This document shows, one piece after another, positions 9,601-37,066 of a stretch of 64,000 nt of DNA (position 1 is the first letter of the stretch; each line of letters begins with the position of its first letter). The translations under genes were made by a program, and so were the position numbers. Source of the stretch: a virus; IMG/VR virus record IMGVR_UViG_3300032050_010539, one strand, 5' to 3'. The notes beneath the pieces were generated by a model, which searched no databases, was not told where the DNA came from, and worked only from the letters and a program-made list of their open reading frames with translations.

Positions 9601-12600
9601 CTATTCAGATTAATATCAGGGCGTAATAGTCGCTTCCTAACCTCATCGTTCTTCCGCAATAAGGGTATTATAGGTGCCTCTGTATTGGCTCTTATGAATG
9701 TACAGACTGGCCTAGCTAATATACTAGATGCCAGTGGGCCTAGTTTCCTGCGTTCTATTAACCTACAGTTCGGTGATGTCGACGTAGAGGAGGTACGCTA
9801 CAATAACCGCAATCTAATACTCGAAGGGCCCGTCATGGGGGCCGCTTATACAGCATTAGCAGTAGCCGGGGGTTATGTAGGTAGTGAGGTATTCGGCAGT
9901 ATGGCTATTAACCGGTATAGTCTCAGCGATGAGTTGTATGCCAGTGGTAACAGTCGTCTAATATCCGCAGAGGCAGAAGGAGTACTGAAGCGAGGCACTC
10001 TAGTCAAGAAGGGTAATAGATTTATGACGTGGGGTCTAACTACAGCAGCGCTACTATGGGCCCCCCGCGTCATCACTGGTGTAGGTAACTTTATAATGAA
10101 TATCTTCAACCGTATAACAGGGCAAGAGGGGCAGGTACTAGACGAGAACTACGCAACAGTAGGTAGTCTCCAGGCATGGAAACAATCAGTACTCAATAGG
10201 GTCAATACAGGCGGGCTAGTTGGCAATAGAACTGAGAGGACTTTAGAGGCATGGTCTGCATTCGTAGCAGGACGTATTAGTGCACACACACCAGTAGCAG
10301 CTATAAGTCAACGGGCCAAAACTATAGAGGTCTACGCGAGTCAGGCCCCCACGTCCTACATACAGTTCTTCATAGCGGAGTCACGGCGCCGTGGTTCTGA
10401 GATGGATAAGGGCGTATACAGTTATAGTATGGGGGTACAATCAGCACCTGTACTGGGTATCTCTATGAGCGTGTCAGCCCCGCTGGCCTTTGACGCTAAT
10501 AAGCCCTTCGCTGAGGCCTTCATATATAACCAGGAGAAGGATAACGTTATCAATTACATACAGAGCGCTGGTAATGTATCATTAGCAGTATCGTTAACGG
10601 CTGGGCTAGTTAGTCTGTCTGCTCTGTTACCAGAGTACGCGCGCTCTAAGATACTACGCGATCCTACGATAGGTGCGGGTGCGAAGGATCTCAGCAATAA
10701 GATGACTAACTTAGCAGCACTAGTAGATGACTGGGGCGGCCGGGCTATGAATGTACCCATAGCAGGTGCACGAACTGCGGTTGGTTCCTTCTGGCATTAC
10801 TCAGGTAAGGTAGTAGACACAATGGCGGGGTTCAGCTACGGGGCACTACAGGGATTCGACAAGCTAGATAGAAGACTAGCTAAGGTCATAGCTCTGAGTA
10901 ACTTTATTGTACCCCCTGTGCTAGGCGCACTATTTGGACTAACGGGCACGAGTCCACTAACAAGTTCCCTACTTGTAGGTACCTCTCTGGCCTTCGCATA
11001 TTCCTTCGCTATGAAGCACGATCCATGGCGTAAGAAGGTAGCGGCTCTACAATCTCGTGTAGCGAGAATAACAGGTATGGAGGATATTAGGATAAGCCGC
11101 GGTATGCATACGGGTCTACGCAGATGGCGGGCCTATCGTATGCCACTACTTCTTGGCACTATAGCGGCCCTATTCCAAACTAAGACTGGGTGGAACGTAA
11201 GTGAGGGCATGGACGACAATGTCATGACTCGACTAGCTACAGTAGGGCTCTATGCCGGCGTAAACGCTATGGCAGTAGTGGAACTAGGAGACCTCGGGCT
11301 AGACCCAGGCGCTACTATAGAGCGGTATCGTAGAATGAGGGCCAAGGTAGGTAAGATGCACCCACTGAACCCACTAGGTATGTGGCGTAAGCTACGTCTA
11401 GCTTCTCTTGAGAGAGACATACGGTCTGACTTTAATACTGTAGAGACCTACCTATCAGACTACCGTAATAATCGACGGGGCTACCATAGCTTCGATTTAC
11501 TAGATGAACACCTGAAGACAGTTCACGGCACAGCATACCATAATGCTATGAATGAACACGGCCGGCGCCCGTCTAACTTCCAGGTACGGGACATTATAGA
11601 CGAGGCAGGTAACTATAGACTAACAGATTACAGTGAGAACCTACGCACCCTAGTAGATAGCCGAGACTACCTCAAGTATAGAAACGCCAGAATACTGGGG
11701 CCCGGCGGTAGTAGACTATTGCGTTCTGCAGCGGCACTAGGCGCCGTGAACATAGCCGCTACTGCTCTTCTATTAGGTGTGGGTGCTATATTATCTAGTT
11801 CAGGTAATCAGGAGGAAGCAACAGCGGGCTTCTATAACGCTATGGATGACACGCCACTGGAGTTCGTGTCTAATGCATTCCGTCTAGTCACACGACGGGA
11901 TATAGCTGTGGCACAGGATCCCCTGGAGCCTCTGGTTGTAATGGCAGATGGCGCCTATAAGCGTAAGCGCGGCGTGCGCTTAATCAACCCCATAGAGAGC
12001 AGCGTAGGGCGTATGAGTACTGCAATAGATAACCTACGCAACAGCTTTGTATTAAATGCCAGTAACCCATTTATGAGTGTCCTAGTATTTGGTACTAGTG
12101 TACGAGAGGGAGAGCTAGGCTCGCGTCAGACCTTCTACATGCAGCTACAGTCTACTAACCAGGACATCAGTACGGCAGTATATTCTACAGCGCCAGCCTA
12201 TATGTTCAAGATGGTCAAGGCAGGGGCCATGGGCCAGCTATACGCGCGCGACTACCGTAAGGCTAATATAACTGATGCCTCGATGAATAACTTATCAGAG
12301 GATCAGCGCAAGTTTATGGCCATCAGCGTAGTCAGTCTAACAGCACGATTAGACCCATTGACTGATAAGAACCGCCGGCGCGTAACTAGCCCATTCAATA
12401 GAGCCAGCCTGGCCCTCTATAGAGCGGATCCGTTGATGAACATAGCGTTGAGTAGTCGCCTGCAGGTAATACGCAACTTCGCATATCAGCGGCCTGAGTC
12501 ATTAGTATCTGAGATGACTAATCTAGGTAATCCTGATGGTATGAATCCCCGGGATAGTAAAAAACCCAAGTCATATCTAGACACGCTAATTGCATCGCTG

Positions 12601-19068: not shown

Positions 19069-19266
19069 TTAATTGAATTGAAACAACCAGGGATTCCAAG
19101 TTAGTTCAGTATTATCATCTAACGTGACAACCACTTTGTTCTTATGATTAACGTAGGGGTTACCCTTCGTGTTATAACTATAACCCGCTGACTTAGGATA
19201 CGTTGATTGATATGCTATATTAGTAACTACTTTATTATTAATCTCATCACCTAGCTTGATGTGCAT
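19069..19266 (-). CDS. hypothetical protein, 65 aa
   Basis: ORF coupled to the radical SAM gene. Confidence 0.55.
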   Translation of the reverse strand: MHIKLGDEINNKVVTNIAYQSTYPKSAGYSYNTKGNPYVNHKNKVVVTLDDNTELTWNPWLFQFN

Positions 19267-20168
19267 GAGAAGCCTGCCTGGAAGTAATCGATTAGTGAAG
19301 TAGAGTCGAATGACGTGCGGTTATAACTACGACTAGTAGGAGCATACTGCTGCTTAACCGCATCAATATACATAGTGAACTGGAAGTCATCGCCCATATA
19401 GAAGCGGGCCCACCCCTCATCAGTGAATAAACGTCTGAGCTCTAACTGTTCGATAGCCAGGTTATCAAAGGAGAGATTACACCTGCCTATAAGAAAGGGT
19501 AGAGAACGCCGCCACTGCGCTATGCCTGCATCTACCTCAGGGCTATGATAATCTATACCGAAGCCGAAGTTCTTATAGCCTAGTACGAGTACCTTACTGG
19601 TTGCAGCACTGAGATTAACCAACTCATCGATTATACTAACGGGATGGATACCAGCGATTATGTGATACACGATGTTATCTGAGAGACGCAGTACTGATAT
19701 CAGACTGCTATAGTTACTACTAGTAATTGAGATGCCGAGGCCCCGCACTAACTCCCGGCTTACGATATCCTCTATTAGAGTATCGTAGCGATGTAGATGA
19801 CCTTGGTTAACAGTAATGTTAGCTATAAGCCCGCGGGCCTTAAGTTCTACTAGGTAATCCACTATATTAGGATGAGATAGTGGGTTACCACCTCCGTTTG
19901 CTAACTCGACCCCAGCAGGTATATCACTAAGGACATCGAGTAACCGTGTTAGGTCAGCGTGTTTACCATTACGAGTAGAACTCTCATGACAATATTTACA
20001 TCCCATATCACAGTAGTCAGTGATCTTAATATCTATAGAGCAGGGATAGGCGGGGCGGGCCCCAACCACACTTGTAGTACGAACCAGGGTACCATCAGCA
20101 TATAGAGTACACTCATAGTCACCATTGGTATAATGCGCTAAAGTTGTCGTTTCATTAAACTTATTCAT
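19251..20168 (-). CDS. radical SAM protein
   Basis: CxxxCxxC (CDMGCKYCHE), GGGNPLSHP motif. Confidence 0.9.
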   Translation of the reverse strand: MNKFNETTTLAHYTNGDYECTLYADGTLVRTTSVVGARPAYPCSIDIKITDYCDMGCKYCHESSTRNGKHADLTRLLDVLSDIPAGVELANGGGNPLSHPNIVDYLVELKARGLIANITVNQGHLHRYDTLIEDIVSRELVRGLGISITSSNYSSLISVLRLSDNIVYHIIAGIHPVSIIDELVNLSAATSKVLVLGYKNFGFGIDYHSPEVDAGIAQWRRSLPFLIGRCNLSFDNLAIEQLELRRLFTDEGWARFYMGDDFQFTMYIDAVKQQYAPTSRSYNRTSFDSTSLIDYFQAGFSCTSS

Positions 20169-20172
20169 AGAA

Positions 20173-20508
20173 TTACGGATAATCAGTATTAATCCCCATG
20201 ATCTCGCAGGCTTCGATTAATTTATCTATCCCCCCGAACCATCCGGCGGTAACATTAGAATGGCTCAACGTGCATCGGAGCTCTTCGATGAGGCATTCAC
20301 CTCTACGCTCTTCTGTGTAGGCTTCTGGAGAAGGATATAATTCGCATTCCCAATCTCCTACTTGACGGTGAGTATCAATATCAAACTTTTTGTTATCAAC
20401 CACTATATACTTTCGCCCGACTGATTTAATAGTTCCCCATGTACCATCCTCGTGGGGAATTACTGCCCATACCCTGGCCCCCTTTTTAATAAAGTCTTTT
20501 GGCAACAT
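20173..20508 (-). CDS. hypothetical SH3/beta-barrel protein (YorP-like)
   Basis: GTIKSVGRKYIVV motif; GAGG RBS. Confidence 0.55.
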   Translation of the reverse strand: MLPKDFIKKGARVWAVIPHEDGTWGTIKSVGRKYIVVDNKKFDIDTHRQVGDWECELYPSPEAYTEERRGECLIEELRCTLSHSNVTAGWFGGIDKLIEACEIMGINTDYP

Positions 20509-22421: not shown

Positions 22422-22911
22422 TAAATAATCTCCTGTTAATATCAGATGATAGGAAGGCCTCTAACCAGACAGGGCGGGGCTCTATAAGATAACAGGCCCG
22501 CGCTGCGATAAGAGGATGATAGAAGTAAGGTAAAAACTCTAGCTGAGCTAGTGCCTCTATATGATGAGGCGTAGCTATACCTCTATGATCTAGTATACCC
22601 AGGGTAGGGTAGCGCTCGTGATATATATTTAGGTTATAGTTGTGCAGATACTCAGTAGTATCTAGACAGTACCAGGCAGCGCCAGAGCGGGGCCGCTCCA
22701 TATCAGATAGGTAGCCTGTTATAATCGGCGGGCCCTCACTATCCTCACATAGATACTCTATGGCACGTCTATACATACGCCACTCCTGGGCCCAACTCGA
22801 CTGTAGTGTTATAGTAACAGCACTATAGCGGCCATCAGCGTAACGCCCTACATAATAGGGGTATATCATACAATCGCGAGCTGGTATACTCACGTGATAA
22901 TTAGTCATCAC
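22411..22911 (-). CDS. hypothetical protein, 166 aa
   Basis: Coupled to the primase stop. Confidence 0.6.
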   Translation of the reverse strand: MMTNYHVSIPARDCMIYPYYVGRYADGRYSAVTITLQSSWAQEWRMYRRAIEYLCEDSEGPPIITGYLSDMERPRSGAAWYCLDTTEYLHNYNLNIYHERYPTLGILDHRGIATPHHIEALAQLEFLPYFYHPLIAARACYLIEPRPVWLEAFLSSDINRRLFNVC

Positions 22912-24101
22912 GATCCAAATAGTAGAGAGGCATATTCAAGGGGCCCTAATTGATTATCTACATAAGGAGCCAGTAGCCCTAAGGGGGAATGAGTGGCAGT
23001 TAATACCCGCAATATATCTACGTGATGACTAATGTCGGGCCCCCATTGAGCTAGTAAATCATCTACGAATAGTATGCGGTTAGCATTAATAGTATCAGCA
23101 GCATTAACGCGAGGCTCTGCTACCAACCACTCATTAATATCCTTATAATCAGCAACCATATACGTCATAAGCTCAGCTAATGGTAAGTTAATCTGCAGCT
23201 GAACTAGTTGAGGTATGATACGCACCCAGCTCTTATATACGCCAGCATGAGTAGGATGATCATCGCTATACTTATCTGAGTCGAATATAAATGTGATATG
23301 ACGGAAGGGCTTGAATTTACTGGTGTGACATAATAGATACTCCAGACCCAATAACCCCACTACAGGTAAACCACGACCTACTAGTGATGTGGCATCAGGC
23401 GGGCCCTCAACTATATATAGCTCGCGAGCTGGGTGCTTACTATACTCCTTAAGACAATGTTCTAGATAGAGATAGCGCTTACTATTAATAGCGGCCCGCG
23501 TATCCTTATAACGGGGGGCCCTCTCACTACTACCTATATAGCGACCAACCATATGGACTAGATGACCTCGTGTATCTCGTATAGGGAATATAATGCGTTC
23601 CCTATAGTAATCCTCGCCGTCCTCCTTAATCAGACCCTCGCGGGCTAATGCCTCATGATCTATATCGAATTGACGTAGACCACCAGGAGGAGCATACCCT
23701 ATACCAATACTACGAGCTAGATCGAGAGACCAGCCCCGCCGTAGTATATAATCCTGAGCAGCAGGCGTAGTATCAAGATAATAGTGATAGGCCTCTAGCG
23801 CGCTCTCTAGTACTATACTGCGAGCATCCATAACCTCGCGGGCCTGACGTATACCGGCGCGGGCCTCTAACTGTTGCATAGCCCCAGCATAATCAAGCTT
23901 AGTATGCCAACGCCAGGCATTAACCAGGCCCATACCTGCGTTCAACTCACAACTAGTCCTCCAGCACTTCATATAGTGCGGATATACACTCAGCTTACCG
24001 CGGCCCCCACAAGCAGGACAATCATTAGTACCATGCCGTAGATTTAGTAGCTCTGGTATAGTTAGCCGCTCCATTATCAGTTGTTCATTCTCTCTCGTCA
24101 C
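22908..24101 (-). CDS. dnaG: DnaG-type DNA primase
   Basis: Zn finger CPACGG...CWRTSC, RIIFPIRD..G..V...GR, PRYK, TOPRIM VEGPPD, FDSD, KDINE. Confidence 0.88.
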   Translation of the reverse strand: MTRENEQLIMERLTIPELLNLRHGTNDCPACGGRGKLSVYPHYMKCWRTSCELNAGMGLVNAWRWHTKLDYAGAMQQLEARAGIRQAREVMDARSIVLESALEAYHYYLDTTPAAQDYILRRGWSLDLARSIGIGYAPPGGLRQFDIDHEALAREGLIKEDGEDYYRERIIFPIRDTRGHLVHMVGRYIGSSERAPRYKDTRAAINSKRYLYLEHCLKEYSKHPARELYIVEGPPDATSLVGRGLPVVGLLGLEYLLCHTSKFKPFRHITFIFDSDKYSDDHPTHAGVYKSWVRIIPQLVQLQINLPLAELMTYMVADYKDINEWLVAEPRVNAADTINANRILFVDDLLAQWGPDISHHVDILRVLTATHSPLGLLAPYVDNQLGPLEYASLLFGS

Positions 24102-24345
24102 CGCTCTCCGTATATTGTATGAATGCCCTATAATAACTAAGCTTGAACTTAAACATTAATACATATTGCCTGTTAATGGCAAGATGCTCGAGATAAGTGA
24201 TGTCACTTACCCGTAGCCCATTCCATAAGAATATCTCGGTCAACATACCTCACCCACGTCATCCATACTTCCGTTCTTAAGGGATACCTTCGACATGGTT
24301 CAGGCCATATATTTATATCTCGTCTATCGCGCCACATATCGCCCT

Positions 24346-24516
24346 CTAATATAAATTGCATACTTCCAGTCTGTAATAAAACAAAGCAAGTTCGAAAGAA
24401 TTACAATCATAAAACTTACGCATTAAGTGATATACCTCAATGGGGGGTTCAGGCATAAACATAGAGGCCTTCAGCTTATTGTGCAGAGTCCAATCGTTAT
24501 GATTAATAGTATTCAT
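24346..24516 (-). CDS. array micro-protein (last unit, MNTINHNDWTLHNKL...FYYRL)
   Basis: Hand translation, 56 aa; array motifs. Confidence 0.55.
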   Translation of the reverse strand: MNTINHNDWTLHNKLKASMFMPEPPIEVYHLMRKFYDCNSFELALFYYRLEVCNLY

Positions 24517-24689
24517 TCAAACAAACCTTTATGATTCAATCTAGAGTAAAACGAACCGACATGATTCCTGCTCATTAAATAAGAGCGGGTTACTAAGTAA
24601 TTTGCAGGCTCAATAAGTATAAAGGCCTTAAGCTTATTGTGTAGAGACCAATCATTAATCATAATCATCTTCATTGAAATCATCTTCAT
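24513..24689 (-). CDS. array micro-protein (W.LHNKL type)
   Basis: MKMIS...WSLHNKL...FYSRL. Confidence 0.5.
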   Translation of the reverse strand: MKMISMKMIMINDWSLHNKLKAFILIEPANYLVTRSYLMSRNHVGSFYSRLNHKGLFE

Positions 24690-24842
24690 TGAAATAACCG
24701 CCCTTATGTATAATGTCATCCTTACTCATTCTCATCTAAAATGTGTTAGACAATTCACTTACCAGTCTATAGTAAAACTGGTCGACAGAGGTAATAAGTA
24801 TAGAGGCCTTCAGCTTATTGTGCAGAATCCAAATATTACAAT

Positions 24843-25028
24843 TTAGTCTTCATCGAAATAATTGTATAGCAGTCTATAGTAAAATTGATCTATAAAAGTA
24901 ATAAGTATAGAGGCCTTGAGCTTATTGTCGATAGTCCAGTCGTAAAGCGAACCCAATTTGAAATAATCATTATTACACAGAACCCAATTATTATATAAAA
25001 TCCAATAAGTAGAAATTCTCTTCATCAA
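24843..25028 (-). CDS. array micro-protein
   Basis: WTIDNKL...FYYRL...YFDED. Confidence 0.55.
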   Translation of the reverse strand: MMKRISTYWILYNNWVLCNNDYFKLGSLYDWTIDNKLKASILITFIDQFYYRLLYNYFDED

Positions 25029-25091
25029 AACAAACCCTTATGATTCAATCTAGAGTAAAACGAACCGACCTTATTAAATAAGACCAGGTTA

Positions 25092-25358
25092 CTAAGTAAT
25101 TTGCCCCAACGAAAGACTCAATAAGCATAGAGGCTTTTTATTATTTGTCTCAGTGGAAGGTTCAGTAATAAGTATAGAAGCTTTAAGCTTATTGTGTAGA
25201 GTCCAATCACACAAACTCTTATGACCCAATCTAGAATAAAACAAACCGACATAGTACCTGCTCATTAAATAAGACCAGATACCATAATTTGCCTTAACGG
25301 AAGGCTCAATAAGCATAAAGGCCTCAAAGGTCCAATCATTAATCATAATCATCTTCAT
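25092..25358 (-). CDS. array micro-protein (two fused units)
   Basis: FYSRL followed by a second WTLHNKL block. Confidence 0.45.
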   Translation of the reverse strand: MKMIMINDWTFEAFMLIEPSVKANYGIWSYLMSRYYVGLFYSRLGHKSLCDWTLHNKLKASILITEPSTETNNKKPLCLLSLSLGQIT

Positions 25359-25477
25359 CGAAATAACCGTCCTCATTTAGAATAATAAACCAATAAAACC
25401 GGGTTACTAAATAATTTGCCCCAACGGAAAACTCAAGCATAGGGGCCTTAATAAGCTTATTGTGCAGAGACCAATCA

Positions 25478-25651
25478 TTAATCATCTTCATCGAAATAAT
25501 CATCTTTATATAGAATGTCGTATATCGCAGCTCTTAGTCTATAGTAAAACCCGCCGGTAGAGATAATAAGTGTACGGGCCTTTAACTTATTGTTGAGAGT
25601 CCAGTCGTAAAACAAAGCAAGTTTAAAAACTTTACAATTAACCATCTTCAT
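25478..25651 (-). CDS. array micro-protein
   Basis: MKMVNC...WTLNNKL...FYYRL...YFDEDD. Confidence 0.55.
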   Translation of the reverse strand: MKMVNCKVFKLALFYDWTLNNKLKARTLIISTGGFYYRLRAAIYDILYKDDYFDEDD

Positions 25652-25815
25652 AAAATGCAACTCTTATGATTCAATCTAGAGTAAAACGAACCGACATAAT
25701 ACCTGCCCATTAAATAAGACTCGGTTACTAAGTAATTTGCCCCAACGGAAAACTCAATAAGCATAGAGGCCTCAAGCTTATTGTGCAGAGACCAATAATC
25801 ATTAATCATCTTCAT
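25648..25815 (-). CDS. array micro-protein
   Basis: MKMINDYWSLHNKL...FYSRL. Confidence 0.55.
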   Translation of the reverse strand: MKMINDYWSLHNKLEASMLIEFSVGANYLVTESYLMGRYYVGSFYSRLNHKSCIL

Positions 25816-26080
25816 CGAAATAACCGTCCTCATATTCATCAAATTGGCCATCCTCAAGATAATAACCGCCCTCATCTAGAATATCATCTTTATCTAGGAT
25901 GTTTTCTAACATATTTATCAATCTACAGTAAAACCGGAAGATAGAGCCGCAACACTTGCTTAGTTTAGGAGTATAAATCTCGAAACCCATCTCTTCATAA
26001 TAATGAAACAAGCGCAAGGCATTGAGATAATCATTATTCAAAATCCAAGGTAACAGACAATCGTTAGAAACATTCTTCAT
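25802..26080 (-). CDS. array micro-protein with triplicated acidic tail
   Basis: FYCRL...LDKDDILDEGGYYLEDGQFDEYEDGYFDEDD. Confidence 0.55.
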   Translation of the reverse strand: MKNVSNDCLLPWILNNDYLNALRLFHYYEEMGFEIYTPKLSKCCGSIFRFYCRLINMLENILDKDDILDEGGYYLEDGQFDEYEDGYFDEDD

Positions 26081-26126
26081 TGAAATAACCGTCCTTATAT
26101 AAAATATCATTCTTATTCATCCTCAT

Positions 26127-26312
26127 CTAGAATGTTATGTATAACACACTTACCAGTCTATAATAAAACTGGTCGACAGAGATAATAAGTATAGAGGTCT
26201 TCAACTTATTGTGCAGAGTCCGAAAGTAATTTGCCCCAACGGAAGGCTCAATAAGCATAGAAGCTCTAAGCTTATTGTTTAGAGTCCACCCTTCACATAT
26301 AATCATCTTCAC
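26127..26312 (-). CDS. array micro-protein
   Basis: WTLNNKL...FYYRL. Confidence 0.5.
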   Translation of the reverse strand: MKMIICEGWTLNNKLRASMLIEPSVGANYFRTLHNKLKTSILIISVDQFYYRLVSVLYITF

Positions 26313-26358
26313 TAGAATAACCGTCCTTATGTATAAAGTAATCCTTATTCATTCTCAT

Positions 26359-26550
26359 CTAGAATGTGTTAGACAGTCTATAGTAAAACAGGTCTACAGA
26401 GGTAATAAGTATAAAGGCCTTCAGCTTATTGTGCATAATAAAGGCAAATTTGAAAGATTTATAGCTTACTAAATCATTTATCTCAGCGAAAGACTCAGTA
26501 GTAAGTATAAGGTTATTATGTGTAATCCAATATTTAGAGATAGTGTTCAT
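26359..26550 (-). CDS. array micro-protein
   Basis: WITHNNL...HNKL...FYYRL. Confidence 0.5.
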   Translation of the reverse strand: MNTISKYWITHNNLILTTESFAEINDLVSYKSFKFAFIMHNKLKAFILITSVDLFYYRLSNTF

Positions 26551-26731
26551 TAAAGTAATCATCCTCATTTAGAATATCACTCTCATCTAGAGCGTTATAT
26601 ATAAAAGCCACTAGTCTATAGTAAAGCCGGTTGATAGAGCACTTGCTTAATTCAGGAATATGACTCTCGAGGCCCACATCCTCATAATAATAAAACAAGT
26701 AATTAAGCTTGTTACAACTAATTGCTCTCAT
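26534..26731 (-). CDS. array micro-protein (MRAIS type)
   Basis: FYYYE..IPEL..LYYRL..EDDYF. Confidence 0.55.
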   Translation of the reverse strand: MRAISCNKLNYLFYYYEDVGLESHIPELSKCSINRLYYRLVAFIYNALDESDILNEDDYFNEHYL

Positions 26732-26931
26732 TGAAGTAATCGCCCCCCATTCAGAAAGCCATATATCCCAAATTCTCCCATTCTATAATAAAACCAGGCG
26801 AGTCCCCCAGGACTATAAGCAAAATACAATTTACCTAATAATACCTGTAGGTCAACAGACGGATCAGTAATAGGTATAGGTATATTTAACCTATTACGTG
26901 GGGCCCATTTGCTACAATTAATTATCTTCAT
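26728..26931 (-). CDS. array micro-protein (LLGKLYF type)
   Basis: WAPRN..PITDP..AWFYYR. Confidence 0.55.
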   Translation of the reverse strand: MKIINCSKWAPRNRLNIPIPITDPSVDLQVLLGKLYFAYSPGGLAWFYYRMGEFGIYGFLNGGRLLQ

Positions 26932-27127
26932 CGAAATAATCATCCTCATCTAGAATGTTATATAACACATCTCCTAATCTATGATAAAATACGTTGATAG
27001 GAACATGTAACTTGTTCAATTCAGGGATATAGACCTCGATACCCATGTTTTCATAGTAGTAACGATAAGACCATAGATGGTATTTTCTATTACGAGGAGC
27101 CCAATTATTACAACTAATCATCTTCAT
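26918..27127 (-). CDS. array micro-protein
   Basis: WAPRN..IPEL..FYHRL..YFDEDN. Confidence 0.6.
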   Translation of the reverse strand: MKMISCNNWAPRNRKYHLWSYRYYYENMGIEVYIPELNKLHVPINVFYHRLGDVLYNILDEDDYFDEDN

Positions 27128-27305
27128 CGAAATAATCGTCCTTATCTAGAGCGCTATATAATCTAGAGTAGAACGAACGGACGTAGAACCTGCTTATTAA
27201 ATAAAACCTAGGTACTAAGCCGGTTGTTCTAACGGAAGGCTCAATAAGCATAGAGGCTCTAAGCTTATTGTGTAGAGTCAACTCATCACATATAATAGTC
27301 TTCAT
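27114..27305 (-). CDS. array micro-protein
   Basis: TLHNKL..FYSRL..YFDEDD. Confidence 0.55.
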   Translation of the reverse strand: MKTIICDELTLHNKLRASMLIEPSVRTTGLVPRFYLISRFYVRSFYSRLYSALDKDDYFDEDD

Positions 27306-27508
27306 AAAAACATACTCCTACCCAGTCTGAAGTAAAACAAAGATGTCGAAGCAGACACCCCCACCCAAAAAATACTGTAATGCGTAGCGAGGTTGAAATA
27401 ATTATGATTATAATACTTTCTTACATTTATATCAGTGGAAGGCTCTCTACTAGATATAGATACCCTAAGTTTGTTATTAAGCATAGGCCAATAACTAATC
27501 ATCTTCAT
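27302..27508 (-). CDS. array micro-protein
   Basis: MKMISYWPMLNNKL..FYFRL. Confidence 0.55.
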   Translation of the reverse strand: MKMISYWPMLNNKLRVSISSREPSTDINVRKYYNHNYFNLATHYSIFWVGVSASTSLFYFRLGRSMFL

Positions 27509-27803
27509 CGAAATAATTATCCTCATATAGAATGTCGTATATCGTAGCTTTTAGTCTATAGTAAAACCCGCCGGTAGATAATAACTTTAGCTTATTCTTG
27601 GGAGTCCAGTCGTAAAACAAAGCAAGTTTGAAAACGTTACAATTAATCATCTTTATAGAATATATACTTATTTACTATGTCACATACCAGTCTATAATAA
27701 AATCGGTCGACAGCATAAAACCTTAATTCAGGAGTATAGGTATCGATATCCATACGCTCACAATAATAAAAGAAGTAATTAAGCTTGTTATAACTAATTG
27801 CCC

Positions 27804-28004
27804 TCATTGAGGTAACCGCCCCCCATAAAGGCCATATAACCCAAATCCTCCCAGCCTATAATAAAACCAGGCGAGTCTCCCAGGACTACAAGCAAAATAC
27901 AATTTACCTAATAATCCTTGTAGGTCAACAGACGGATCAGTAATAGGTATAGGTATATTCAAGTTATTACGTGGGGCCCAATTGTTACAATTAATCATCT
28001 TCAT
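27804..28004 (-). CDS. array micro-protein (LLGKLYF type)
   Basis: Near-copy of 26728-26931. Confidence 0.55.
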   Translation of the reverse strand: MKMINCNNWAPRNNLNIPIPITDPSVDLQGLLGKLYFACSPGRLAWFYYRLGGFGLYGLYGGRLPQ

Positions 28005-28209
28005 TAAAGTAATTGTCCTCATATAGAATGCTATACAACACTACTCCCGCTAGTCTATGGTAAAACCTGGCAGGCCCCCCAGCGTTATAAGTATGAAAGT
28101 TATAGTTATAGAAACTGTAGTATAAACTATCACTGTCTACTAAAATCGACGGGTCAGTGATATATGTATTTAGTTTACTACGTGAAGGCCAACCATTAAT
28201 CATCTTCAT
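27991..28209 (-). CDS. array micro-protein
   Basis: ITDP..LYY.FY..GGPARFYHRL..YFNEDD. Confidence 0.55.
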   Translation of the reverse strand: MKMINGWPSRSKLNTYITDPSILVDSDSLYYSFYNYNFHTYNAGGPARFYHRLAGVVLYSILYEDNYFNEDD

Positions 28210-28386
28210 CGAAATATAACAATCTATGGTAAAATCAAACAGTCCCTCCTCTAGAATCATCAAGATAGAAGTTATAGAATAACTTATTATCTGCTATCAG
28301 AGGGTTAGTAATGGGTACAGGTGCATTCCATGCATACGAAACCCATTCAATATCACGCGGAGCCCAACCGTTAGAATTAATTATCT

Positions 28387-28569
28387 TCATAGAAATAATG
28401 ATAGGTTACGGTAAACGCAAGCGACTCCTCCGGCACTATAAGTGTGAAATTTATAGTATAAATAATTACGGTTTGCTATCAACGGGTTGGTAATAGGTAC
28501 AGGTATATCCCGTATATGCGCAGCCCTTCTATTACGAGAGGCCCAATTGTTACAATTAATCATCTTCAT
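28387..28569 (-). CDS. array micro-protein
   Basis: WASRN..PITNP..YSAGGVACVYRN. Confidence 0.55.
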   Translation of the reverse strand: MKMINCNNWASRNRRAAHIRDIPVPITNPLIANRNYLYYKFHTYSAGGVACVYRNLSLFL

Positions 28570-28714
28570 CGAAATAATCATCCTCATTCAAAGGTAACAC
28601 TACTGCTCCTGCCAGTCTATAATAAAACATAGTGAGCCCCCAATAAACTCTAATAGGCATAGATATATTCAACTTATGACGTGGGACCCATTTGTTACTA
28701 CCAACTATCTTCAT
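28556..28714 (-). CDS. array micro-protein (52 aa, below ORF-track cutoff)
   Basis: MKIVGSNKWVPRH...FYYRL...YFDEDD by hand translation. Confidence 0.55.
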   Translation of the reverse strand: MKIVGSNKWVPRHKLNISMPIRVYWGLTMFYYRLAGAVVLPLNEDDYFDEDD

Positions 28715-28886
28715 AGAAATCGTCCTTAGCGAACAGTGTCAGTCTATAATAAAATAACATGATAGAAGTTTTGTAGTGGTAACGATAAAAGCTATAGTAT
28801 AAACTATCACTGTTTGCTAAAACCGACGGGTCAGCAGCAAGTATATTCAACTCATTACGTAAAGGCCAATTGTTAATAATCTTCAT
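28698..28886 (-). CDS. array micro-protein
   Basis: WPLRN..FYYRL..DFYEDS. Confidence 0.55.
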   Translation of the reverse strand: MKIINNWPLRNELNILAADPSVLANSDSLYYSFYRYHYKTSIMLFYYRLTLFAKDDFYEDSW

Positions 28887-29067
28887 CGAAATATAACAAT
28901 CTATAGTAAAACCAAGCAGGCCCTCCACCATGATAAAGATAGAAGTTATAGAATAACTTATTATTATCTGCTACTGGAGGAACAATAATAGGTACAGGTG
29001 CATTCCATTCATACGGAGCCCATTTAATAGTACGCGGAGCCCAATCATTACAATCAATCATCTTCAT
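28873..29067 (-). CDS. array micro-protein
   Basis: WAPR..WAPY..GGPAWFYYRL..YFDEDY. Confidence 0.6.
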   Translation of the reverse strand: MKMIDCNDWAPRTIKWAPYEWNAPVPIIVPPVADNNKLFYNFYLYHGGGPAWFYYRLLYFDEDY

Positions 29068-29344
29068 AGAAATAATCCCCCTCCCCTAGAAAGTCATATA
29101 ACAAACATGCTAGTTTATAATAAAACAAGTCGATAGGAACATGTAACTTGTCTAATTCAGGGATATAGGCCCCGAGACCCATGCTTTCATAGTAGTAACG
29201 ATAGAACCATAGATAGTATAGATTATCACCATTTGGTAAAATCGGTGGGTCAGTAATAGGTATCGGTATACTCAACTTATTACGTGCAGTCCAACAATCG
29301 TTATTACTATGAGGCGCCCAATTGTTACAATTAATCATCTTCAT
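29054..29344 (-). CDS. array micro-protein (96 aa)
   Basis: WAPH..PITDP..IPEL..FYYKL..FYEDD. Confidence 0.6.
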   Translation of the reverse strand: MKMINCNNWAPHSNNDCWTARNKLSIPIPITDPPILPNGDNLYYLWFYRYYYESMGLGAYIPELDKLHVPIDLFYYKLACLLYDFLGEGDYFYEDD

Positions 29345-29571
29345 AGAAGTAATAATAGGTTGTAGTTATCTTCATCTAGAAAGCTATACAACACTACTCC
29401 TACTAGTCTATTGTAAAATTTGGCGGGCCCTCCATCATGATAAAAATAGAAGTTATAGAATAACTTATTATCTGCTATTGGAGGGACAGCAGTAGGTACA
29501 TATGCCCCCCATCCAGACGGAGCCCATTTAATATTACGCAGAGCCCAATTATTACAATTAATCTTCTTCAT
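29341..29571 (-). CDS. array micro-protein
   Basis: WALRN..GGPAKFYNRL..LDED. Confidence 0.6.
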   Translation of the reverse strand: MKKINCNNWALRNIKWAPSGWGAYVPTAVPPIADNKLFYNFYFYHDGGPAKFYNRLVGVVLYSFLDEDNYNLLLLL

Positions 29572-29755
29572 AAAAATAATGATAGGTTATATTACGGTAA
29601 ACGCAAGCGACTCCTCCGGCACTATAAGTGTGAAAGTTATAGTATAAATAATTATGGTTTACTATTAACGGGTTAGTAATAGGTATGGGTGCGGCCTCTT
29701 CATACGGAACCGGCTTATTACGAGGAGCCCAATCGTTACAATTAATCTTCTTCAT
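29558..29755 (-). CDS. array micro-protein
   Basis: WAPRN..PITNP..FYEED. Confidence 0.6.
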   Translation of the reverse strand: MKKINCNDWAPRNKPVPYEEAAPIPITNPLIVNHNYLYYNFHTYSAGGVACVYRNITYHYFYEED

Positions 29756-29933
29756 AGAAGTAATATTCTGCCCCTGTCAGTATATAATAAAACATATCAA
29801 GCCCCCCAGTATCATTATAAACATAAAAACTATCGTATAAATTATCAATGCTCATTAGAGGCGGATTAGTGGTAGGTATGTATGGAGTCCACGCATAACG
29901 AGGAGCCCAATTGTTAGAATTAATCTTCTTCAT
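29742..29933 (-). CDS. array micro-protein
   Basis: MKKINSNNWAPRY..FYEED. Confidence 0.6.
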   Translation of the reverse strand: MKKINSNNWAPRYAWTPYIPTTNPPLMSIDNLYDSFYVYNDTGGLDMFYYILTGAEYYFYEED

Positions 29934-30159
29934 CGAAATAAGTGTCCTCATATAGAATGTTGTATAGCACACTGAAATAACCACCCTCATTTAGAATGTT
30001 ATATAACATATATGACAGTCTATGATAAAACCAGACGAGTCTCTCAGGATTATAAGCAAAAAAGCATAATCCCTGTAGGCCAACAGGCGGGTTAGTAATA
30101 GGTATAAGTATACTCGACTGATTACGTGGGGCCCAATTGTTAGAATTAATCTTCTTCAT
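29920..30159 (-). CDS. array micro-protein
   Basis: WAPRN..FYHRL..duplicated LYNIL..YFDEED. Confidence 0.6.
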   Translation of the reverse strand: MKKINSNNWAPRNQSSILIPITNPPVGLQGLCFFAYNPERLVWFYHRLSYMLYNILNEGGYFSVLYNILYEDTYFDEED

Positions 30160-30355
30160 CGAAATAATTGTCCTTATATAGAATATATAATACTATTCCC
30201 GACAGTCTATAGTAAAATATAGCAAGTCCTCTAGAATTATAAAGATAGAAGCTATAGTATAAATTATTGATATTTGCTACTGGCGGGGCAGTGATAGGTA
30301 TAGGTGCAATCCATTCACTACACGGGGCCCAGCAATTTGGATTAATTGTTTTCAT
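30146..30355 (-). CDS. array micro-protein
   Basis: WAPC..FYYRL..YFDEED. Confidence 0.6.
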   Translation of the reverse strand: MKTINPNCWAPCSEWIAPIPITAPPVANINNLYYSFYLYNSRGLAIFYYRLSGIVLYILYKDNYFDEED

Positions 30356-30595
30356 AGAGATAGTTATCCTCAGCTAAAATATCAATATCCTGTCTGTAGT
30401 AAAACGCCTTGAAATAAAAGAAGTTGATAGAGACATATAACTTGTGTAATTCAAGGGTATAGGCCCCATATATACTTATCTGCCATGTGTATACACAGTC
30501 TATAGTAAAATCGGTCGACAGCATAAAACCTTAATTCAGGAGTATAGGTATCGAGACCCTCAACAAAATAAAAAAAGTAATTAAGCCTGTTACAT

Positions 30596-30823
30596 CTAAT
30601 CGCTCTCATTGAAGTAATCACCCCCCAAGCTTAAGGTCTCATTCAGAAAGTGATATATCACAAATTCTCCCAGTCTATAATAAAACCAGGCGAGTCTTCC
30701 AGGACTATAAGCAAAATACAATTTGCCTAATAACCCCTGTAGGTCAATAGGCGGGTCAGTAATAGGTATAGGTATATTCAAGTGATTACGTGGGGCCCAG
30801 TCATTACAATTAATTATCTTCAT
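30596..30823 (-). CDS. array micro-protein (LLGKLYF type)
   Basis: Third copy of the 26728/27804 type. Confidence 0.55.
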   Translation of the reverse strand: MKIINCNDWAPRNHLNIPIPITDPPIDLQGLLGKLYFAYSPGRLAWFYYRLGEFVIYHFLNETLSLGGDYFNESD

Positions 30824-30862
30824 CGAAATAATCATCCTCACCTAAAATATCAATATACCAGT

Positions 30863-31090
30863 CTATGTTAAAGAGCGCTGATAAAAACGCAGGTTATAAT
30901 AAAACAAGTCGATAGAAAAATATAACTTGTCTAATTCAAGAGTATAGGCCCCAATTATAATTTCATAGAACCATGTATAATATAAATTATCGCCGTTTGC
31001 TAGAATCGCTGGGTCAGTAATGGATTTAGATATAGACATATGTGGACCCCAATTACTACTAAGCCAACCATTACAATTAATAATCTTCAT
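30863..31090 (-). CDS. array micro-protein
   Basis: ITDP..NLYY..LELDKL..FYY. Confidence 0.5.
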   Translation of the reverse strand: MKIINCNGWLSSNWGPHMSISKSITDPAILANGDNLYYTWFYEIIIGAYTLELDKLYFSIDLFYYNLRFYQRSLT

Positions 31091-31283
31091 AGAGATAATC
31101 ATCCTCATCTAATGATAGTTTACGGTAAAACCAAGCAAGCCCTTGATTATTATAAGTATGAAACTTATAGTATAAATTATGACCACTTGTTATCAGAGGA
31201 TCAGTAATAGGTACAAGTTCACCCCAATATGGAGCCCATCTAGTATTACGAGGAGCCCAATCATTAGAATTAATAATCTTCAT
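31077..31283 (-). CDS. array micro-protein
   Basis: WAPRN..WAPY..PITDP..LDEDDYLYEDY. Confidence 0.6.
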   Translation of the reverse strand: MKIINSNDWAPRNTRWAPYWGELVPITDPLITSGHNLYYKFHTYNNQGLAWFYRKLSLDEDDYLYEDY

Positions 31284-31446
31284 CGAAATAGTCCCCCTCA
31301 TCTAGAATGTTATATAATACATTTCCTGCCAGTCTATAGTAAAACTTGGCGGGCCCCCCAGCATTAACGTAGTAGTAGACCCATTCGCGATACGGCGCCC
31401 ATTTCTCATTATGGGGCGCCCAACAGTTTGTATTAATCTCTTTCAT
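31270..31446 (-). CDS. array micro-protein (first unit, 58 aa)
   Basis: MKEINTNCWAPHN...FYYRL...LDEGDYFDEDY by hand translation. Confidence 0.6.
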   Translation of the reverse strand: MKEINTNCWAPHNEKWAPYREWVYYYVNAGGPAKFYYRLAGNVLYNILDEGDYFDEDY

Positions 31447-31849
31447 CAAATGCCTCCTTTTTTACTGGACGTAAAACCGACTTTTTCTTATAAGCAACCA
31501 CCATTAAATACACCTCTAACAAAGCCTCAATAAGAGACTCCTGCCGAGAACCAAAACAGCGTGAAGTCTTGGAAGGATCAGGATTCACGCTGACCTGCAC
31601 AGTATAACTATTAGGTAATCGTTGGATGACCCAACCATAGCCAAAGCTATCTAGACGCATTTGGAAAAAATAGATCAACTTAGCAAGCGACCCCCGATCT
31701 AACAAAAAGGGATCAGGATCAGAGGTAGAGATAGAAATCCAATCACCCCAAGATAGTTGGATAAAAAAGGTATTCCGAAAAGTACCCACTCCATACCCAC
31801 AAATGTGAGGCTCAGACTTGACCCAATCGTGCAAAAATTCAGTAAGCAT
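31433..31849 (-). CDS. hypothetical protein, 138 aa, lead gene of the array
   Basis: GGAGGG RBS; ends FDERD* overlapping the first array ATG by 14 nt. Confidence 0.7.
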   Translation of the reverse strand: MLTEFLHDWVKSEPHICGYGVGTFRNTFFIQLSWGDWISISTSDPDPFLLDRGSLAKLIYFFQMRLDSFGYGWVIQRLPNSYTVQVSVNPDPSKTSRCFGSRQESLIEALLEVYLMVVAYKKKSVLRPVKKEAFDERD

Positions 31850-34931: not shown

Positions 34932-35131
34932 GCTAGAGTAGCTTGGTAGCTAAAGGCTGAAACGGAGCCTTCAACCGAAAAGGGACTTAATACAAAAAAT
35001 ACCTTTGTTTTTTGTTTCAAAACTGAAATTTGCGAATCCACCGAACTTGGCAAAGATTGAGTGAGGGAAGGGCGTTTCGTCAGGAGTAGATTTAATTAAG
35101 TTTTGCGGGTTCAATTCCCGTCTCTAGTACC
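34932..35131 (+). ncRNA. ~200-nt tRNA-like structured RNA with a ~130-nt insert in the variable-arm position
   Basis: Acceptor GCTAGAG/CTCTAGT+A, T-arm GCGGG-TTCAATT-CCCGT, D-like TAGCT-TGGT-AGCTA, hairpin AAGGCT/AGCCTT, long-range helix ACTTAAT/ATTAAGT. Confidence 0.65.
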
Positions 35132-35170
35132 TATTAAATTATGCCACCAGTCACGAGTTAATAAATTCAT

Positions 35171-35443
35171 TTAATACTCATTGAGTCGCATTTTTAGATT
35201 CTTCAGTTTTTCAAGTTTTCTTTCAGTTTGTTTAATTGCTTTAAGTCTCTTTTCTTCAAAGACTTTTTGAGCTTCTGTTTCCGTTAGCACATACTCTTTT
35301 GAGGTAAATCCGTCTAGCATTAACATATTAAATTTACGGGGATTATCCGGGGAAAATACCCCATGGCAGATTTTTCCATTGCACTTTATAATGCCACTTG
35401 TCAAAGCGTATTTTGTGACATAAACTGTAATTGTTTCGTCCAT
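35171..35443 (-). CDS. hypothetical phage protein, 90 aa
   Basis: VYVTKYALTSGI motif; AGGAG RBS. Confidence 0.65.
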   Translation of the reverse strand: MDETITVYVTKYALTSGIIKCNGKICHGVFSPDNPRKFNMLMLDGFTSKEYVLTETEAQKVFEEKRLKAIKQTERKLEKLKNLKMRLNEY

Positions 35444-35472
35444 TGATTTACTCCTATGGTTATTATTTTTAG

Positions 35473-35554
35473 TGGGTTAGGCTGGGTTTGCACCAGCGTG
35501 GAATTACTCTACAGATTTACAGTCTGTCGCCTTCGACTACTCGGCCACTAACCC
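35473..35554 (-). tRNA. trnY: tRNA-Tyr(GTA)
   Basis: GGGTTAG/CTAACCC acceptor, anticodon arm ACAGA-CTGTAAA-TCTGT, long variable arm, T-arm GCTGG-TGCAAAC-CCAGC (atypical T-loop). Confidence 0.88.
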
Positions 35555-35566
35555 TTGTTTAGATTT

Positions 35567-35595
35567 ATCTTACCATAATTCTTAATGCCTGTCAA
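35567..35595 (-). promoter_or_regulatory. sigma70-type promoter for tRNA-Tyr
   Basis: TTGACA-N17-TAAGAT. Confidence 0.75.
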
Positions 35596-36057
35596 TCATG
35601 GTTTTTGATTTTCTTGATTCTTTTGAGATTCTTGCAAATTGAGAAGTTGAAGCACAGCTTCATCTGCGTCTTTACGCGCCATACTACAAGTCCATAGTCT
35701 TTGTTCATTGCGCTTAATAATGATAATTTCTGTATCAGAAACTGAACAAACTAAATCATTTTTCTGTTTTATTAGTTGATTAAGAGATTCTATTCGTTGC
35801 TTTTGTTCTAATTCAGAAACGGGTTGAGGTTTTTCTCCGTACTCTTGTGTAGAGAAAACAATAGCTAACATAAAACTTTTTGTTTCTTTAAACTGAAACC
35901 GAATAATCTGCCAACTAAATTCACCATCAGGTTCTAATTCTCGATTCCAAATATTTAGAAAGGTCTGTAAATAACCTTCTAATCCTTTTTGAGTTTGACG
36001 GTTTTTATTAATATCACTGACTAAAAATCCCGTATCTAACAGAATATTTGACTTCAT
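35596..36057 (-). CDS. host-like protein resembling the C-terminal domain of type IIG/N-6 DNA methylase R-M enzymes
   Basis: IIIIKRNEQRLWTCSMARKDADE motif; AT-rich, host-like codon use. Confidence 0.45.
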   Translation of the reverse strand: MKSNILLDTGFLVSDINKNRQTQKGLEGYLQTFLNIWNRELEPDGEFSWQIIRFQFKETKSFMLAIVFSTQEYGEKPQPVSELEQKQRIESLNQLIKQKNDLVCSVSDTEIIIIKRNEQRLWTCSMARKDADEAVLQLLNLQESQKNQENQKP

Positions 36058-36299
36058 TTGCTGCCAATACCTCGAAGATAGTCTTTATTAGTGGCTAAGT
36101 CCCCCGGTCCGCCATCGACACAACCAATATATTCTTTGGCTGCTTCATAGAATGAAATCGTTTTTTCTTCAGTGAGTTCTTTCTTCTCTGCCTTAAATTG
36201 CAAGAATTTAATAAAGTCGATTACTTCTTGCTGTTGTTGGGGAGTGAGGGCGTTTAGTTTTTCTAAGATGGTTTGTGAGTGAGTGGTTGCTGATATCAT
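36054..36299 (-). CDS. DUF2281-like antitoxin
   Basis: LEKLNALTPQQQQEVIDFIKFL and IGCVDGGPGDLATNKDYL.G.G motifs of cyanobacterial antitoxins. Confidence 0.7.
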   Translation of the reverse strand: MISATTHSQTILEKLNALTPQQQQEVIDFIKFLQFKAEKKELTEEKTISFYEAAKEYIGCVDGGPGDLATNKDYLRGIGSK

Positions 36300-36430
36300 G
36301 GGTTAATTCTCTTGGGGGTTCTTCTGACTGACTGTCTTGAATAGAGTAAGAGTAAGAATATCAAGGATTTAACAGTTCTACATAAAACATATTGTGACTC
36401 CGATTAATTTTACATATAAAGTTTTAATGT

Positions 36431-36736
36431 TTATTCATTGCCAAGATACCATTGCTTATCACTAAGAAACCAGAAAAACATTCCTTTGCAAGAATTAGTA
36501 CAGTCTTTCTCAGATATTAATTCTTGCCATAAACGAAAACATTCAAAAAATTGCTCCCATCCATAAGGAACATCTTCTTTAAGATTAGTCCAAATAATAG
36601 ATAGATACCTTTCGATAAGATTGCGTATTGTTAAGATTAAAGAGTGTGGTTTTATTCCCATCTCTTTTAGTTCTGCTTTGGTTAATTTCTTTCTTAGAAA
36701 TTGATCGATCTTTTTATCTAGTTGCGTTTGATTCAT
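36431..36736 (-). CDS. hypothetical protein, 101 aa (12 nt downstream of a CRISPR-like repeat)
   Basis: ORF track; AT-rich island. Confidence 0.6.
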   Translation of the reverse strand: MNQTQLDKKIDQFLRKKLTKAELKEMGIKPHSLILTIRNLIERYLSIIWTNLKEDVPYGWEQFFECFRLWQELISEKDCTNSCKGMFFWFLSDKQWYLGNE

Positions 36737-36748
36737 TGTTTAGTATCA

Positions 36749-36785
36749 GTTTCAATCCCTAATAAAGCTTAAACTTAATTGTTTC
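36749..36785 (-). CRISPR. solitary degenerate CRISPR repeat (type I-D-like)
   Basis: GAAACAATTAAGTTTAAGCTTTATTAGGGATTGAAAC, 37 nt ending in ATTGAAAC. Confidence 0.65.
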
Positions 36786-36799
36786 TTTTTCCTTAATAT

Positions 36800-37066
36800 T
36801 TAATCTTCTCCCCAATCTGGGTAGTATTGTAAATAGACAGCTTGTCGCTCGATAGCTTCCTTCTCAAGCTTTTCAATTTCTTCGTCATCGAAGTCGTGGT
36901 CCCAAATTAGAGAATCAAGAAACTGGTCTTCTTTCTCTATAAACAATTCCTTCTTAACCATAAAATCTTGGCAACCATAAGACATCCCTCCGCTTTTCCC
37001 TATAAAAATAAGCGCATTGTCTTCAACGGTCGCCAAAAACTCTTTTAATTGTTTTGCAGTAATCAC
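36800..37066 (-). CDS. small acidic protein, 88 aa, between CRISPR-like repeats (Acr candidate)
   Basis: AGGAG RBS with GTG start; D/E-rich. Confidence 0.6.
   Translation of the reverse strand: MITAKQLKEFLATVEDNALIFIGKSGGMSYGCQDFMVKKELFIEKEDQFLDSLIWDHDFDDEEIEKLEKEAIERQAVYLQYYPDWGED

Follow-up and report, generated by a model that had tools for sequence, protein, structure and literature searches.

Myophages of the Ma-LMM01 type (genus Fukuivirus) serve as the principal cultured model of how viruses control toxic Microcystis blooms, and the isolates Ma-LMM01, MaMV-DC, MaMV-DH01 and MaMV-DL/CH provide the closest described counterparts of the DNA analysed here. The window, a stretch of 64,000 nucleotides (nt), is part of a 78-kb IMG/VR virus record (IMGVR_UViG_3300032050_010539; CheckV completeness estimate 46%), and its DNA is about 88% identical, where alignable, to these isolates. 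At positions 24346-31446, on the minus strand, it carries an array of 36 consecutive ATG-started open reading frames (ORFs) of 50-102 amino acids (aa), here called units, plus a start-less 37-aa remnant (24736-24849), flanked upstream by a 138-aa gene and downstream by a DnaG-type primase gene. Family (phrog_4393), position and junction between units are the same as in gp137-gp157 of Ma-LMM01 and the corresponding 'hypothetical protein' runs of the other isolates, with 21-28 units in the cultured isolates versus 36 in the window. The array is probably a lineage-specific tandem family of small protein-coding genes, found in Fukuivirus only and set in a string of replication genes between a RecD-like helicase (beyond the 138-aa gene) and the primase.

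Several better-known systems resemble this locus in part. Tsuru and Kobayashi 2008 (PMC2568036) describe the tandem lpl paralogues of Staphylococcus aureus, in which a conserved unit joins the 3' end of an ORF to the 5' end of its neighbour, the centre is variable, and recombination at this junction shuffles the genes. The window and related arrays likewise show a conserved junction, a variable centre and reassorted units, and by analogy the junction may act as the unit of evolution, with recombination as the presumed agent. The lpl genes differ in being bacterial, much larger and far fewer in copy, in being set apart by an intergenic spacer where the units have a dual-coded overlap, and in lacking any sequence relation to the units. 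Coupled overlapping genes of prokaryotic and phage operons share with the array a stop codon in or near the next start and a Shine-Dalgarno (SD)-like motif inside the upstream coding sequence; the window differs from ordinary coupled genes in a fixed 14-nt overlap repeated about 20-35 times between paralogues, with conserved residues in both frames.

Poxvirus K3L accordions and the hyperplastic regions of T4-like phages, including the internal-protein locus, offer another comparison, as the copy number and content of small genes vary there between conserved flanks. Unlike the K3L accordion, the window contains old, diverged copies that have orthologues of their own, and counter-defence, the defining role of the K3L and T4 examples, is a guess for phrog_4393. 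The prochlorosin-type families of cyanobacteria, which are ribosomally synthesised and post-translationally modified peptides (RiPPs), likewise consist of numerous short paralogues that combine conserved with variable parts, and they too have a cyanobacterial context. Unlike prochlorosins, the units are tandem instead of scattered, have no leader/core layout and no Nif11/NHLP leader match in Pfam, and adjoin no lanthionine synthetase or other recognised maturase.

Family range and protein-level constraint

All eight units tested match phrog_4393, listed in PHROGs as "unknown function", with E values of 6e-27 to 6e-7, and the 32 places in the genome that match this family at E<=0.001 all lie within the array, the family taking up about 4% of the phage genome. 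An earlier reading of the window, made from the DNA letters without database searches (the sequence-only reading), had known of no named family for these peptides; this does not hold, the units being members of phrog_4393 and counterparts of annotated hypothetical proteins of Ma-LMM01. A word-indexed protein search returned 150 small proteins, of which all 12 looked at are Ma-LMM01-like, and an exhaustive profile search of 1.84 billion representative proteins gave 77 matches, all of 46-97 aa but one. That one, a 343-aa protein (P0184), was discarded as a spurious match to an unrelated repeat protein. Only nine records, all Fukuivirus, match among 50,697 phage records, and no match was obtained in 185,579 prokaryote species genomes by a junction-pattern scan or a single-protein scan. 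The family is confined to Ma-LMM01-type (Fukuivirus) Microcystis myophages.

No publication describing the array was found in the literature on these phages, a survey to which the Ma-LMM01 genome paper (PMC2258655) did not belong. The genes have been public since the publication of that genome and already form a PHROG, and the contribution made here is a characterisation of public genes, not a discovery. New are the protein-level selection, the dual-frame nature of the "conserved blocks", the mosaic variation between 21 and 38 units and the restriction to one genus.

The units are real genes, with few strongly constrained residues and fast-evolving linkers. Frames were compared on nucleotide alignments made without use of ORF calls, covering unit interiors in three relatives. 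The ratio of nonsynonymous to synonymous substitution rates (dN/dS, omega) is 0.48-0.49 in the called frame versus 0.61-0.75 and 1.02-1.07 in the other two, which holds for each of the three relatives. Across eight relatives, none of 408 changed codons in the called frame turned into a stop, compared with 9 of 384 and 20 of 346 for the two alternative frames, and in 11 of 13 cases the net indel of a unit is divisible by three. Invariant residues are encoded variably: the Tyr of F-Y-Y-R-L, found in all of 94 units, is encoded by TAT in 49 and by TAC in 45, its Leu occurs in 91 of 94 units via four codons, and Pro and Ala of W-A-P each use several synonymous codons. The proportion of nonsynonymous differences (pN) is 0-0.03 at profile columns W19, F44, Y45, F55, Y56 and L59 and about equals the synonymous proportion (pS) in the linkers. 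At the tail columns D-D-Y-F, pS is 0.3-0.75 versus a pN of about 0.1, and the tail is therefore constrained as protein and not just as a ribosome-binding site.

Protein coding and constraint on the peptide frame, both claimed by the sequence-only reading, are thus supported by frame-specific dN/dS, stop avoidance and synonymous variety at fixed residues. None of a dN/dS near 1, random frameshifts or conservation confined to the DNA level is seen; block by block, near-fixed aromatic and hydrophobic columns alternate in character with near-neutral linkers and a protein-constrained tail.

These results bear on the idea that the array is non-coding repetitive DNA, such as origin iterons or a packaging or recombination signal, in which ORFs arise incidentally. 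Its AT-richness, with a guanine-cytosine (GC) content of about 35% against about 45% in the surroundings, its strongly conserved DNA motif of about 35-70 nt recurring every 200 nt or so, and its site between replication genes would suit such an element. The frame-specific constraint, the synonymous variety at fixed residues and the mostly in-frame indels nevertheless render it extremely improbable, as does the content of long ORFs, with stop-to-stop segments of at least 50 aa covering 2729 aa on the minus strand versus 1167 aa on the plus strand (2.3-fold). A length of 7 kb is far above that of known iteron sets, cumulative GC skew has no inflection at the array, and Rfam gave no match within it. 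Tandem Repeats Finder reports no array-scale period in the array because the units are too diverged and too variable in length.

The unit junction and variation between relatives

The acidic-aromatic tail and the MKMIN start had been described as separate conserved blocks. Both are present, but the tail (Y-N-I-L-D-E-D-D-Y-F-D-E-D-D-stop) and the start M-(K/R)-M-I-I-S-M-K-M-I-N-C-N are one DNA motif of about 35 nt in two frames, and for this reason the two blocks are not independent. The stop codon T-A-A sits within the I-N codons of the following unit. Fourteen further loci, anchored on the 138-aa gene, were taken from IMG/VR for comparison, and complete arrays, defined by the presence of both flanks, are available from nine genomes. 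Among the latter, a 14-nt overlap (A-T-G-A-A-G-A-T-G-A-T-T-A-A) occurs in 154 of about 247 junctions and an A-T-G-A overlap in 14, the corresponding counts in the window being 17 and 7 of 34. With the 14-nt overlap each unit is necessarily in the +1 frame relative to the preceding one, in agreement with the rotating frames observed. Information content of the junction in the nine genomes peaks at about -12 to +25 around the start, and an SD-like motif accompanies 169 of 256 units, typically as a G-A-G-G-A located within the codons for D-E-D-D, some 11 nt ahead of the M-K start.

As a layout, the translational chaining proposed earlier is borne out, overlapping stop and start codons linking the units. 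The upstream stop overlaps or abuts the downstream start on the same strand, which is the arrangement of translationally coupled overlapping genes, and ribosomes ending one unit could restart on the next, one frame step (+1) on. Judged from this arrangement, the junction combines conserved residues in two frames with a likely site for cassette exchange and may couple translation.

The complete arrays hold 21 (MaMV-DC), 23 (Ma-LMM01), 27, 28, 30, 34, 36 (window), 38 and 38 units, and the primase protein is 94-99% identical across the array-bearing relatives despite this variation. The 275 units of the nine arrays form 117 clusters at about 75% nt identity. Comparison of the arrays reveals mosaics of shared cassettes, fairly stable in order at both ends and reshuffled with duplications in the middle; in the window, for example, cassette A-B-C occurs twice, together with a third copy of A. 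The end cassettes are the most position-conserved across genomes.

Of the 36 window units, 25 have a best match of 0.85-0.99 identity in another genome, the remaining 11 having none of at least 0.85 in the eight other arrays compared, and for 32 of 36 the best paralogue inside the window is less than 0.8 identical. Matches in other genomes are mostly closer than paralogues in the same genome, and most units are therefore old paralogues, not recent amplifications. The suggestion of a gene accordion survives in part: copy number and order do vary among close relatives, with expansion, contraction and shuffling seen across the nine complete arrays, but recent near-identical amplification is not seen.

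The conserved junction runs from the 3' end of each gene into the 5' end of its successor. Because it spans both gene ends, swapping there would be safe for the frame, and unequal or ectopic recombination within the junction would add, drop or swap whole variable bodies with frames kept. The mosaic pattern suggests that the outcome of such recombination would be arrays of 21-38 units drawn from shared cassettes.

Unit architecture, neighbouring genes and expression

The sequence-only reading had counted about 35 units on the minus strand, most of them open, close to the 36 and one remnant found, and the blocks it listed are confirmed in their order: M-K-x-I-N-C/S-N-x-W-A-P-R-N or W-T/S-L-H-N-K-L, P-I-T-D/N-P, L-Y-Y-x-F-Y, G-G-x-A-x-F-Y-Y-R-L, and L-Y-N-I-L-D-E-D-D-Y-F-D-E-D-D. 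The units are modular and differ in the subset of modules that they contain, the order being N-terminal block, P-I-T-D-P, L-Y-Y-x-F-Y, an optional Y-I-P-E-L-x-K-L insert, F-Y-Y-R-L core, L-Y-N-I-L and acidic-aromatic tail. The tail, present as described, is strongly acidic in just 16 of 36 units. Enrichment in Tyr (10.6%) and Trp agrees with the earlier description as Tyr/Trp/Pro-rich, but Pro is not enriched (4.6% versus 5.0% in other window genes); Tyr, Asn, Phe and Trp reach about twice their frequency in other window genes. The array is also polarised: the side of the 138-aa gene (27500-31446) contains mostly W-A-P-R-N type units with acidic tails, and the primase side (24346-27500) mostly tail-less W-S/T-L-H-N-K-L type units, including fused and start-less ones. 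The features, in 5' to 3' order on the minus strand, are as follows.

31433-31849, minus: 138-aa gene, upstream flank; ends in F-D-E-R-D-stop, with the same junction and a 14-nt overlap with the U01 start
24346-31446, minus: whole array, 36 open units and one remnant, all phrog_4393
31270-31446, minus: U01, 58 aa; W-A-P type, acidic tail
31077-31283, minus: U02, 68 aa
30863-31090, minus: U03, 75 aa; extra L-E-L-D-K-L module, without acidic tail; 39-nt gap to the M-K start of U04
30596-30823, minus: U04, 75 aa; cassette A
30451-30609, minus: U05, 52 aa; cassette B; M-R-A-I type, without the W-A-P-R-N and P-I-T-D-P modules
30342-30524, minus: U06, 60 aa; atypical N-terminus
30146-30355, minus: U07, 69 aa; canonical unit, subjected to folding
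29920-30159, minus: U08, 79 aa; Y-N-I-L segment duplicated internally
29742-29933, minus: U09, 63 aa
29558-29755, minus: U10, 65 aa
29341-29571, minus: U11, 76 aa; altered tail, 4-nt ATGA overlap with U12
29054-29344, minus: U12, 96 aa; composite, with Y-I-P-E-L-D-K-L module; second unit subjected to folding
28873-29067, minus: U13, 64 aa
28698-28886, minus: U14, 62 aa
28556-28714, minus: U15, 52 aa
28550-28582, minus: junction that matches the consensus exactly (tail codons, the stop and the following start, SD-like G-A-G-G-A just upstream of the start)
28387-28569, minus: U16, 60 aa; without acidic tail
28235-28390, minus: U17, 51 aa; frameshifted and truncated, F-Y-Y-R-L end now in another frame
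27991-28209, minus: U18, 72 aa
27804-28004, minus: U19, 66 aa; cassette A copy, 1-nt shift turning the acidic tail into G-G-R-L-P-Q
27643-27807, minus: U20, 54 aa; cassette B copy
27495-27650, minus: U21, 51 aa; cassette C
27302-27508, minus: U22, 68 aa
27114-27305, minus: U23, 63 aa; L-H-N-K-L type, acidic tail
26918-27127, minus: U24, 69 aa
26728-26931, minus: U25, 67 aa; cassette A copy, 0.90 identity to U19
26534-26731, minus: U26, 65 aa; M-R-A-I type
26359-26550, minus: U27, 63 aa; divergent
26127-26306, minus: U28, 59 aa; divergent
25802-26110, minus: U29, 102 aa; long acidic tail; an inner M-K may be the true start
25648-25815, minus: U30, 55 aa; W-S-L-H-N-K-L type, no tail
25478-25651, minus: U31, 57 aa; cassette C copy
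25339-25491, minus: U32, 50 aa
25092-25358, minus: U33, 88 aa; fusion of one unit and part of a second
24843-25025, minus: U34, 60 aa
24736-24849, minus: start-less unit remnant, 37 aa
24513-24674, minus: U35, 53 aa
24346-24516, minus: U36, 56 aa; last recognisable unit
24085-24246, minus: 53-aa ORF between array and primase, overlapping the start of the latter; ORF133 in the MaMV-DC annotation
22908-24101, minus: DnaG-type primase, downstream flank

The 138-aa gene has no family match, with only sub-threshold chance matches in Pfam and none in NCBIfam. The gap between primase and array is an insertion site in relatives, and the window carries none of their inserts: Ma-LMM01 has two transposase genes, gp135-136, there (locus L001, 5251-7009), and MaMV-DL01 (locus L002, 817-2118) and DH01 have three unrelated genes, 153L-155L. 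Upstream of the array by 4 kb and on the same strand lies the sole tRNA of the window, a tRNA-Tyr gene with anticodon GTA (35472-35554, minus). All nine Fukuivirus records conserve it (93-94%), and the Ma-LMM01 annotation likewise lists it as tRNA-Tyr. Its proximity to a family with 10.6% Tyr is suggestive, hinting at translation demand and no more. A second stretch of low GC content (34-35%) with negative AT skew, at 35001-37000, contains small ORFs and the tRNA and is outside the phrog_4393 family. Elsewhere, Pfam gives no match at E<=0.001 for a single ORF of 2898 aa (6634-15330, plus). A 305-aa radical SAM protein, the 'Fe-S oxidoreductase' gp128 of Ma-LMM01, is encoded 4 kb downstream of the array (19251-20168, minus), adjoined by a gene for a phage ProQ C-terminal-like protein (20173-20508).

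The radical SAM gene enters one further explanation, in which the units are RiPP precursors matured by a phage enzyme such as this one and the aromatic residues are modification sites. Such precursors would be expected to be numerous, small and rich in aromatic residues, with variable middles between conserved flanks, as the units are, and the radical SAM gene shares their strand and gene string, its weak best matches including peptide maturases. The protein itself is generic, with 32.7 bits in Pfam, NCBIfam scores all far below cut-offs and no SPASM or peptide-recognition domain detected, and the primase and four further ORFs separate its gene from the array. Constraint in the units is spread over N-terminus, core and tail, instead of following a leader and hypervariable core, and the ORFs scanned against Pfam include no recognisable protease, transporter or other maturase. 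A RiPP origin is accordingly considered highly unlikely.

Transcription as middle genes is shown for the orthologues in Ma-LMM01, where gp137-gp157 fall in cluster 2, subclass B5, the middle class, with primase and helicase, at log2 values of about 7.3-9.8 at two later time points versus about 10.9 for primase (PMC5780444, Table S3). Promoter-like sites are modestly enriched in the array (58 versus 38 +/- 5) and give no verdict on internal promoters, because many of them coincide with Tyr/Asn codons that recur. A recurrent T-T-T-A-T-A / 16 nt / T-A-T-A-A-T match lies on such codons inside units at 29814-29841, 30236-30263 and 31149-31176 (minus), and the predicted middle-gene -10 boxes of gp150 and gp156 are similar to it in sequence (PMC5780444, Table S3).

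The expression class bears on two other proposals. If the units were internal proteins packaged into the virion, with M-K-x-I-N-C-N-x-W as packaging signal and the body as an injected counter-defence protein, a conserved N-terminus, a variable body and a locus that is hyperplastic between close relatives would all be accounted for, in the manner of the internal-protein locus of T4. This is judged very unlikely: the Ma-LMM01 genes cluster with middle (replication) genes and not with late genes, the N-terminus is unlike known capsid-targeting sequences, its conservation is partly forced by the overlap with the tail of the preceding unit, and nothing in the Pfam or PHROG annotations suggests a virion protein. 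Middle expression and a place in the replication-gene string between helicase and primase are, by comparison, what would be expected if the units acted on the replisome, their acidic-aromatic C-terminus mimicking the acidic tail of single-strand-binding protein and competing for its partners. The acidic unit tails, often with an aromatic residue near the end, may resemble single-strand-binding protein tails, and they are under protein-level constraint. The replisome proposal is nonetheless a very doubtful one, as 20 of 36 units are without a strongly acidic tail, one conserved target does not account for 117 sequence clusters, and no homology to any replication protein was found.

Predicted structure and possible roles

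AlphaFold2 modelling of U07 (106 aligned sequences; predicted local distance difference test score, pLDDT, 62.7) gives a single helix over residues 29-61, comprising the aromatic core and L-Y-N-I-L, with a disordered N-terminal half, and modelling of U12 (38 sequences) reaches a pLDDT of 51.0. Pfam yields only sub-threshold chance matches for the units, and an ESM Atlas feature search gave scores of 0.80, the chance level. A membrane helix was considered and dropped, as hand-calculated Kyte-Doolittle values are borderline for the core of U07 and not hydrophobic in others such as U01.

Microcystis carries one of the largest defence repertoires known. Within the explanation of the array as a Fukuivirus-specific family of small coding genes, the units may be small binding proteins made in mid-infection, in which a conserved aromatic helix, as modelled, often with an acidic-aromatic tail, would be the shared part and the variable segments would be directed at variable host targets such as Microcystis defence proteins. 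This assignment of function is tentative, and rather less probable than not. A phage-borne, recombination-shuffled library in which each variant neutralises a different member of the Microcystis defences or toxin-antitoxin systems, with the junction as both coupler and recombination handle, appears unlikely.

Several points weigh against these proposals and the coding family that underlies them. Purifying selection is weak overall, with an omega of about 0.5; substitutions at codon positions 1/2/3 number 50/52/73 (p = 0.06, one orthologue per unit); GC content is flat over codon positions (0.38, 0.32, 0.36), unlike in other window genes; and comparisons among relatives share phylogenetic history and hence are not independent. 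Some units are frameshifted (U17), fused (U33) or start-less, and with more than half (20 of 36) devoid of a strongly acidic tail, no single architecture is therefore required. The structure predictions are of low confidence, the support from expression is at RNA level in the close relative Ma-LMM01, and the host-target part is a guess.

Some of the same observations would fit units that are coding but largely dispensable, propagating themselves by tandem duplication through an easily recombining junction under weak selection and without specific targets. The low constraint with near-neutral linkers, the broken or fused units, the GC content at third codon positions (GC3) below that of other genes and the flat GC profile are in line with this, as is the wide difference in unit content between otherwise near-identical phages. 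It is judged improbable in view of the lack of stops among the 408 changed called-frame codons, the motif residues kept fixed through synonymous change, the descent of most units as distinct orthologous lineages across genomes instead of recent copies, and the retention of at least 21 units in all nine complete arrays.

For the biology of these phages, the phrog_4393 locus stands out as varying between strains more than almost anything around it. Should the units prove to be host-interaction proteins, it would serve as a natural marker for the matching of phages to hosts during blooms and would yield new small inhibitors. Regardless of function, the array is a clear and unusually long example of a dual-frame junction that may couple translation and permit cassette exchange.

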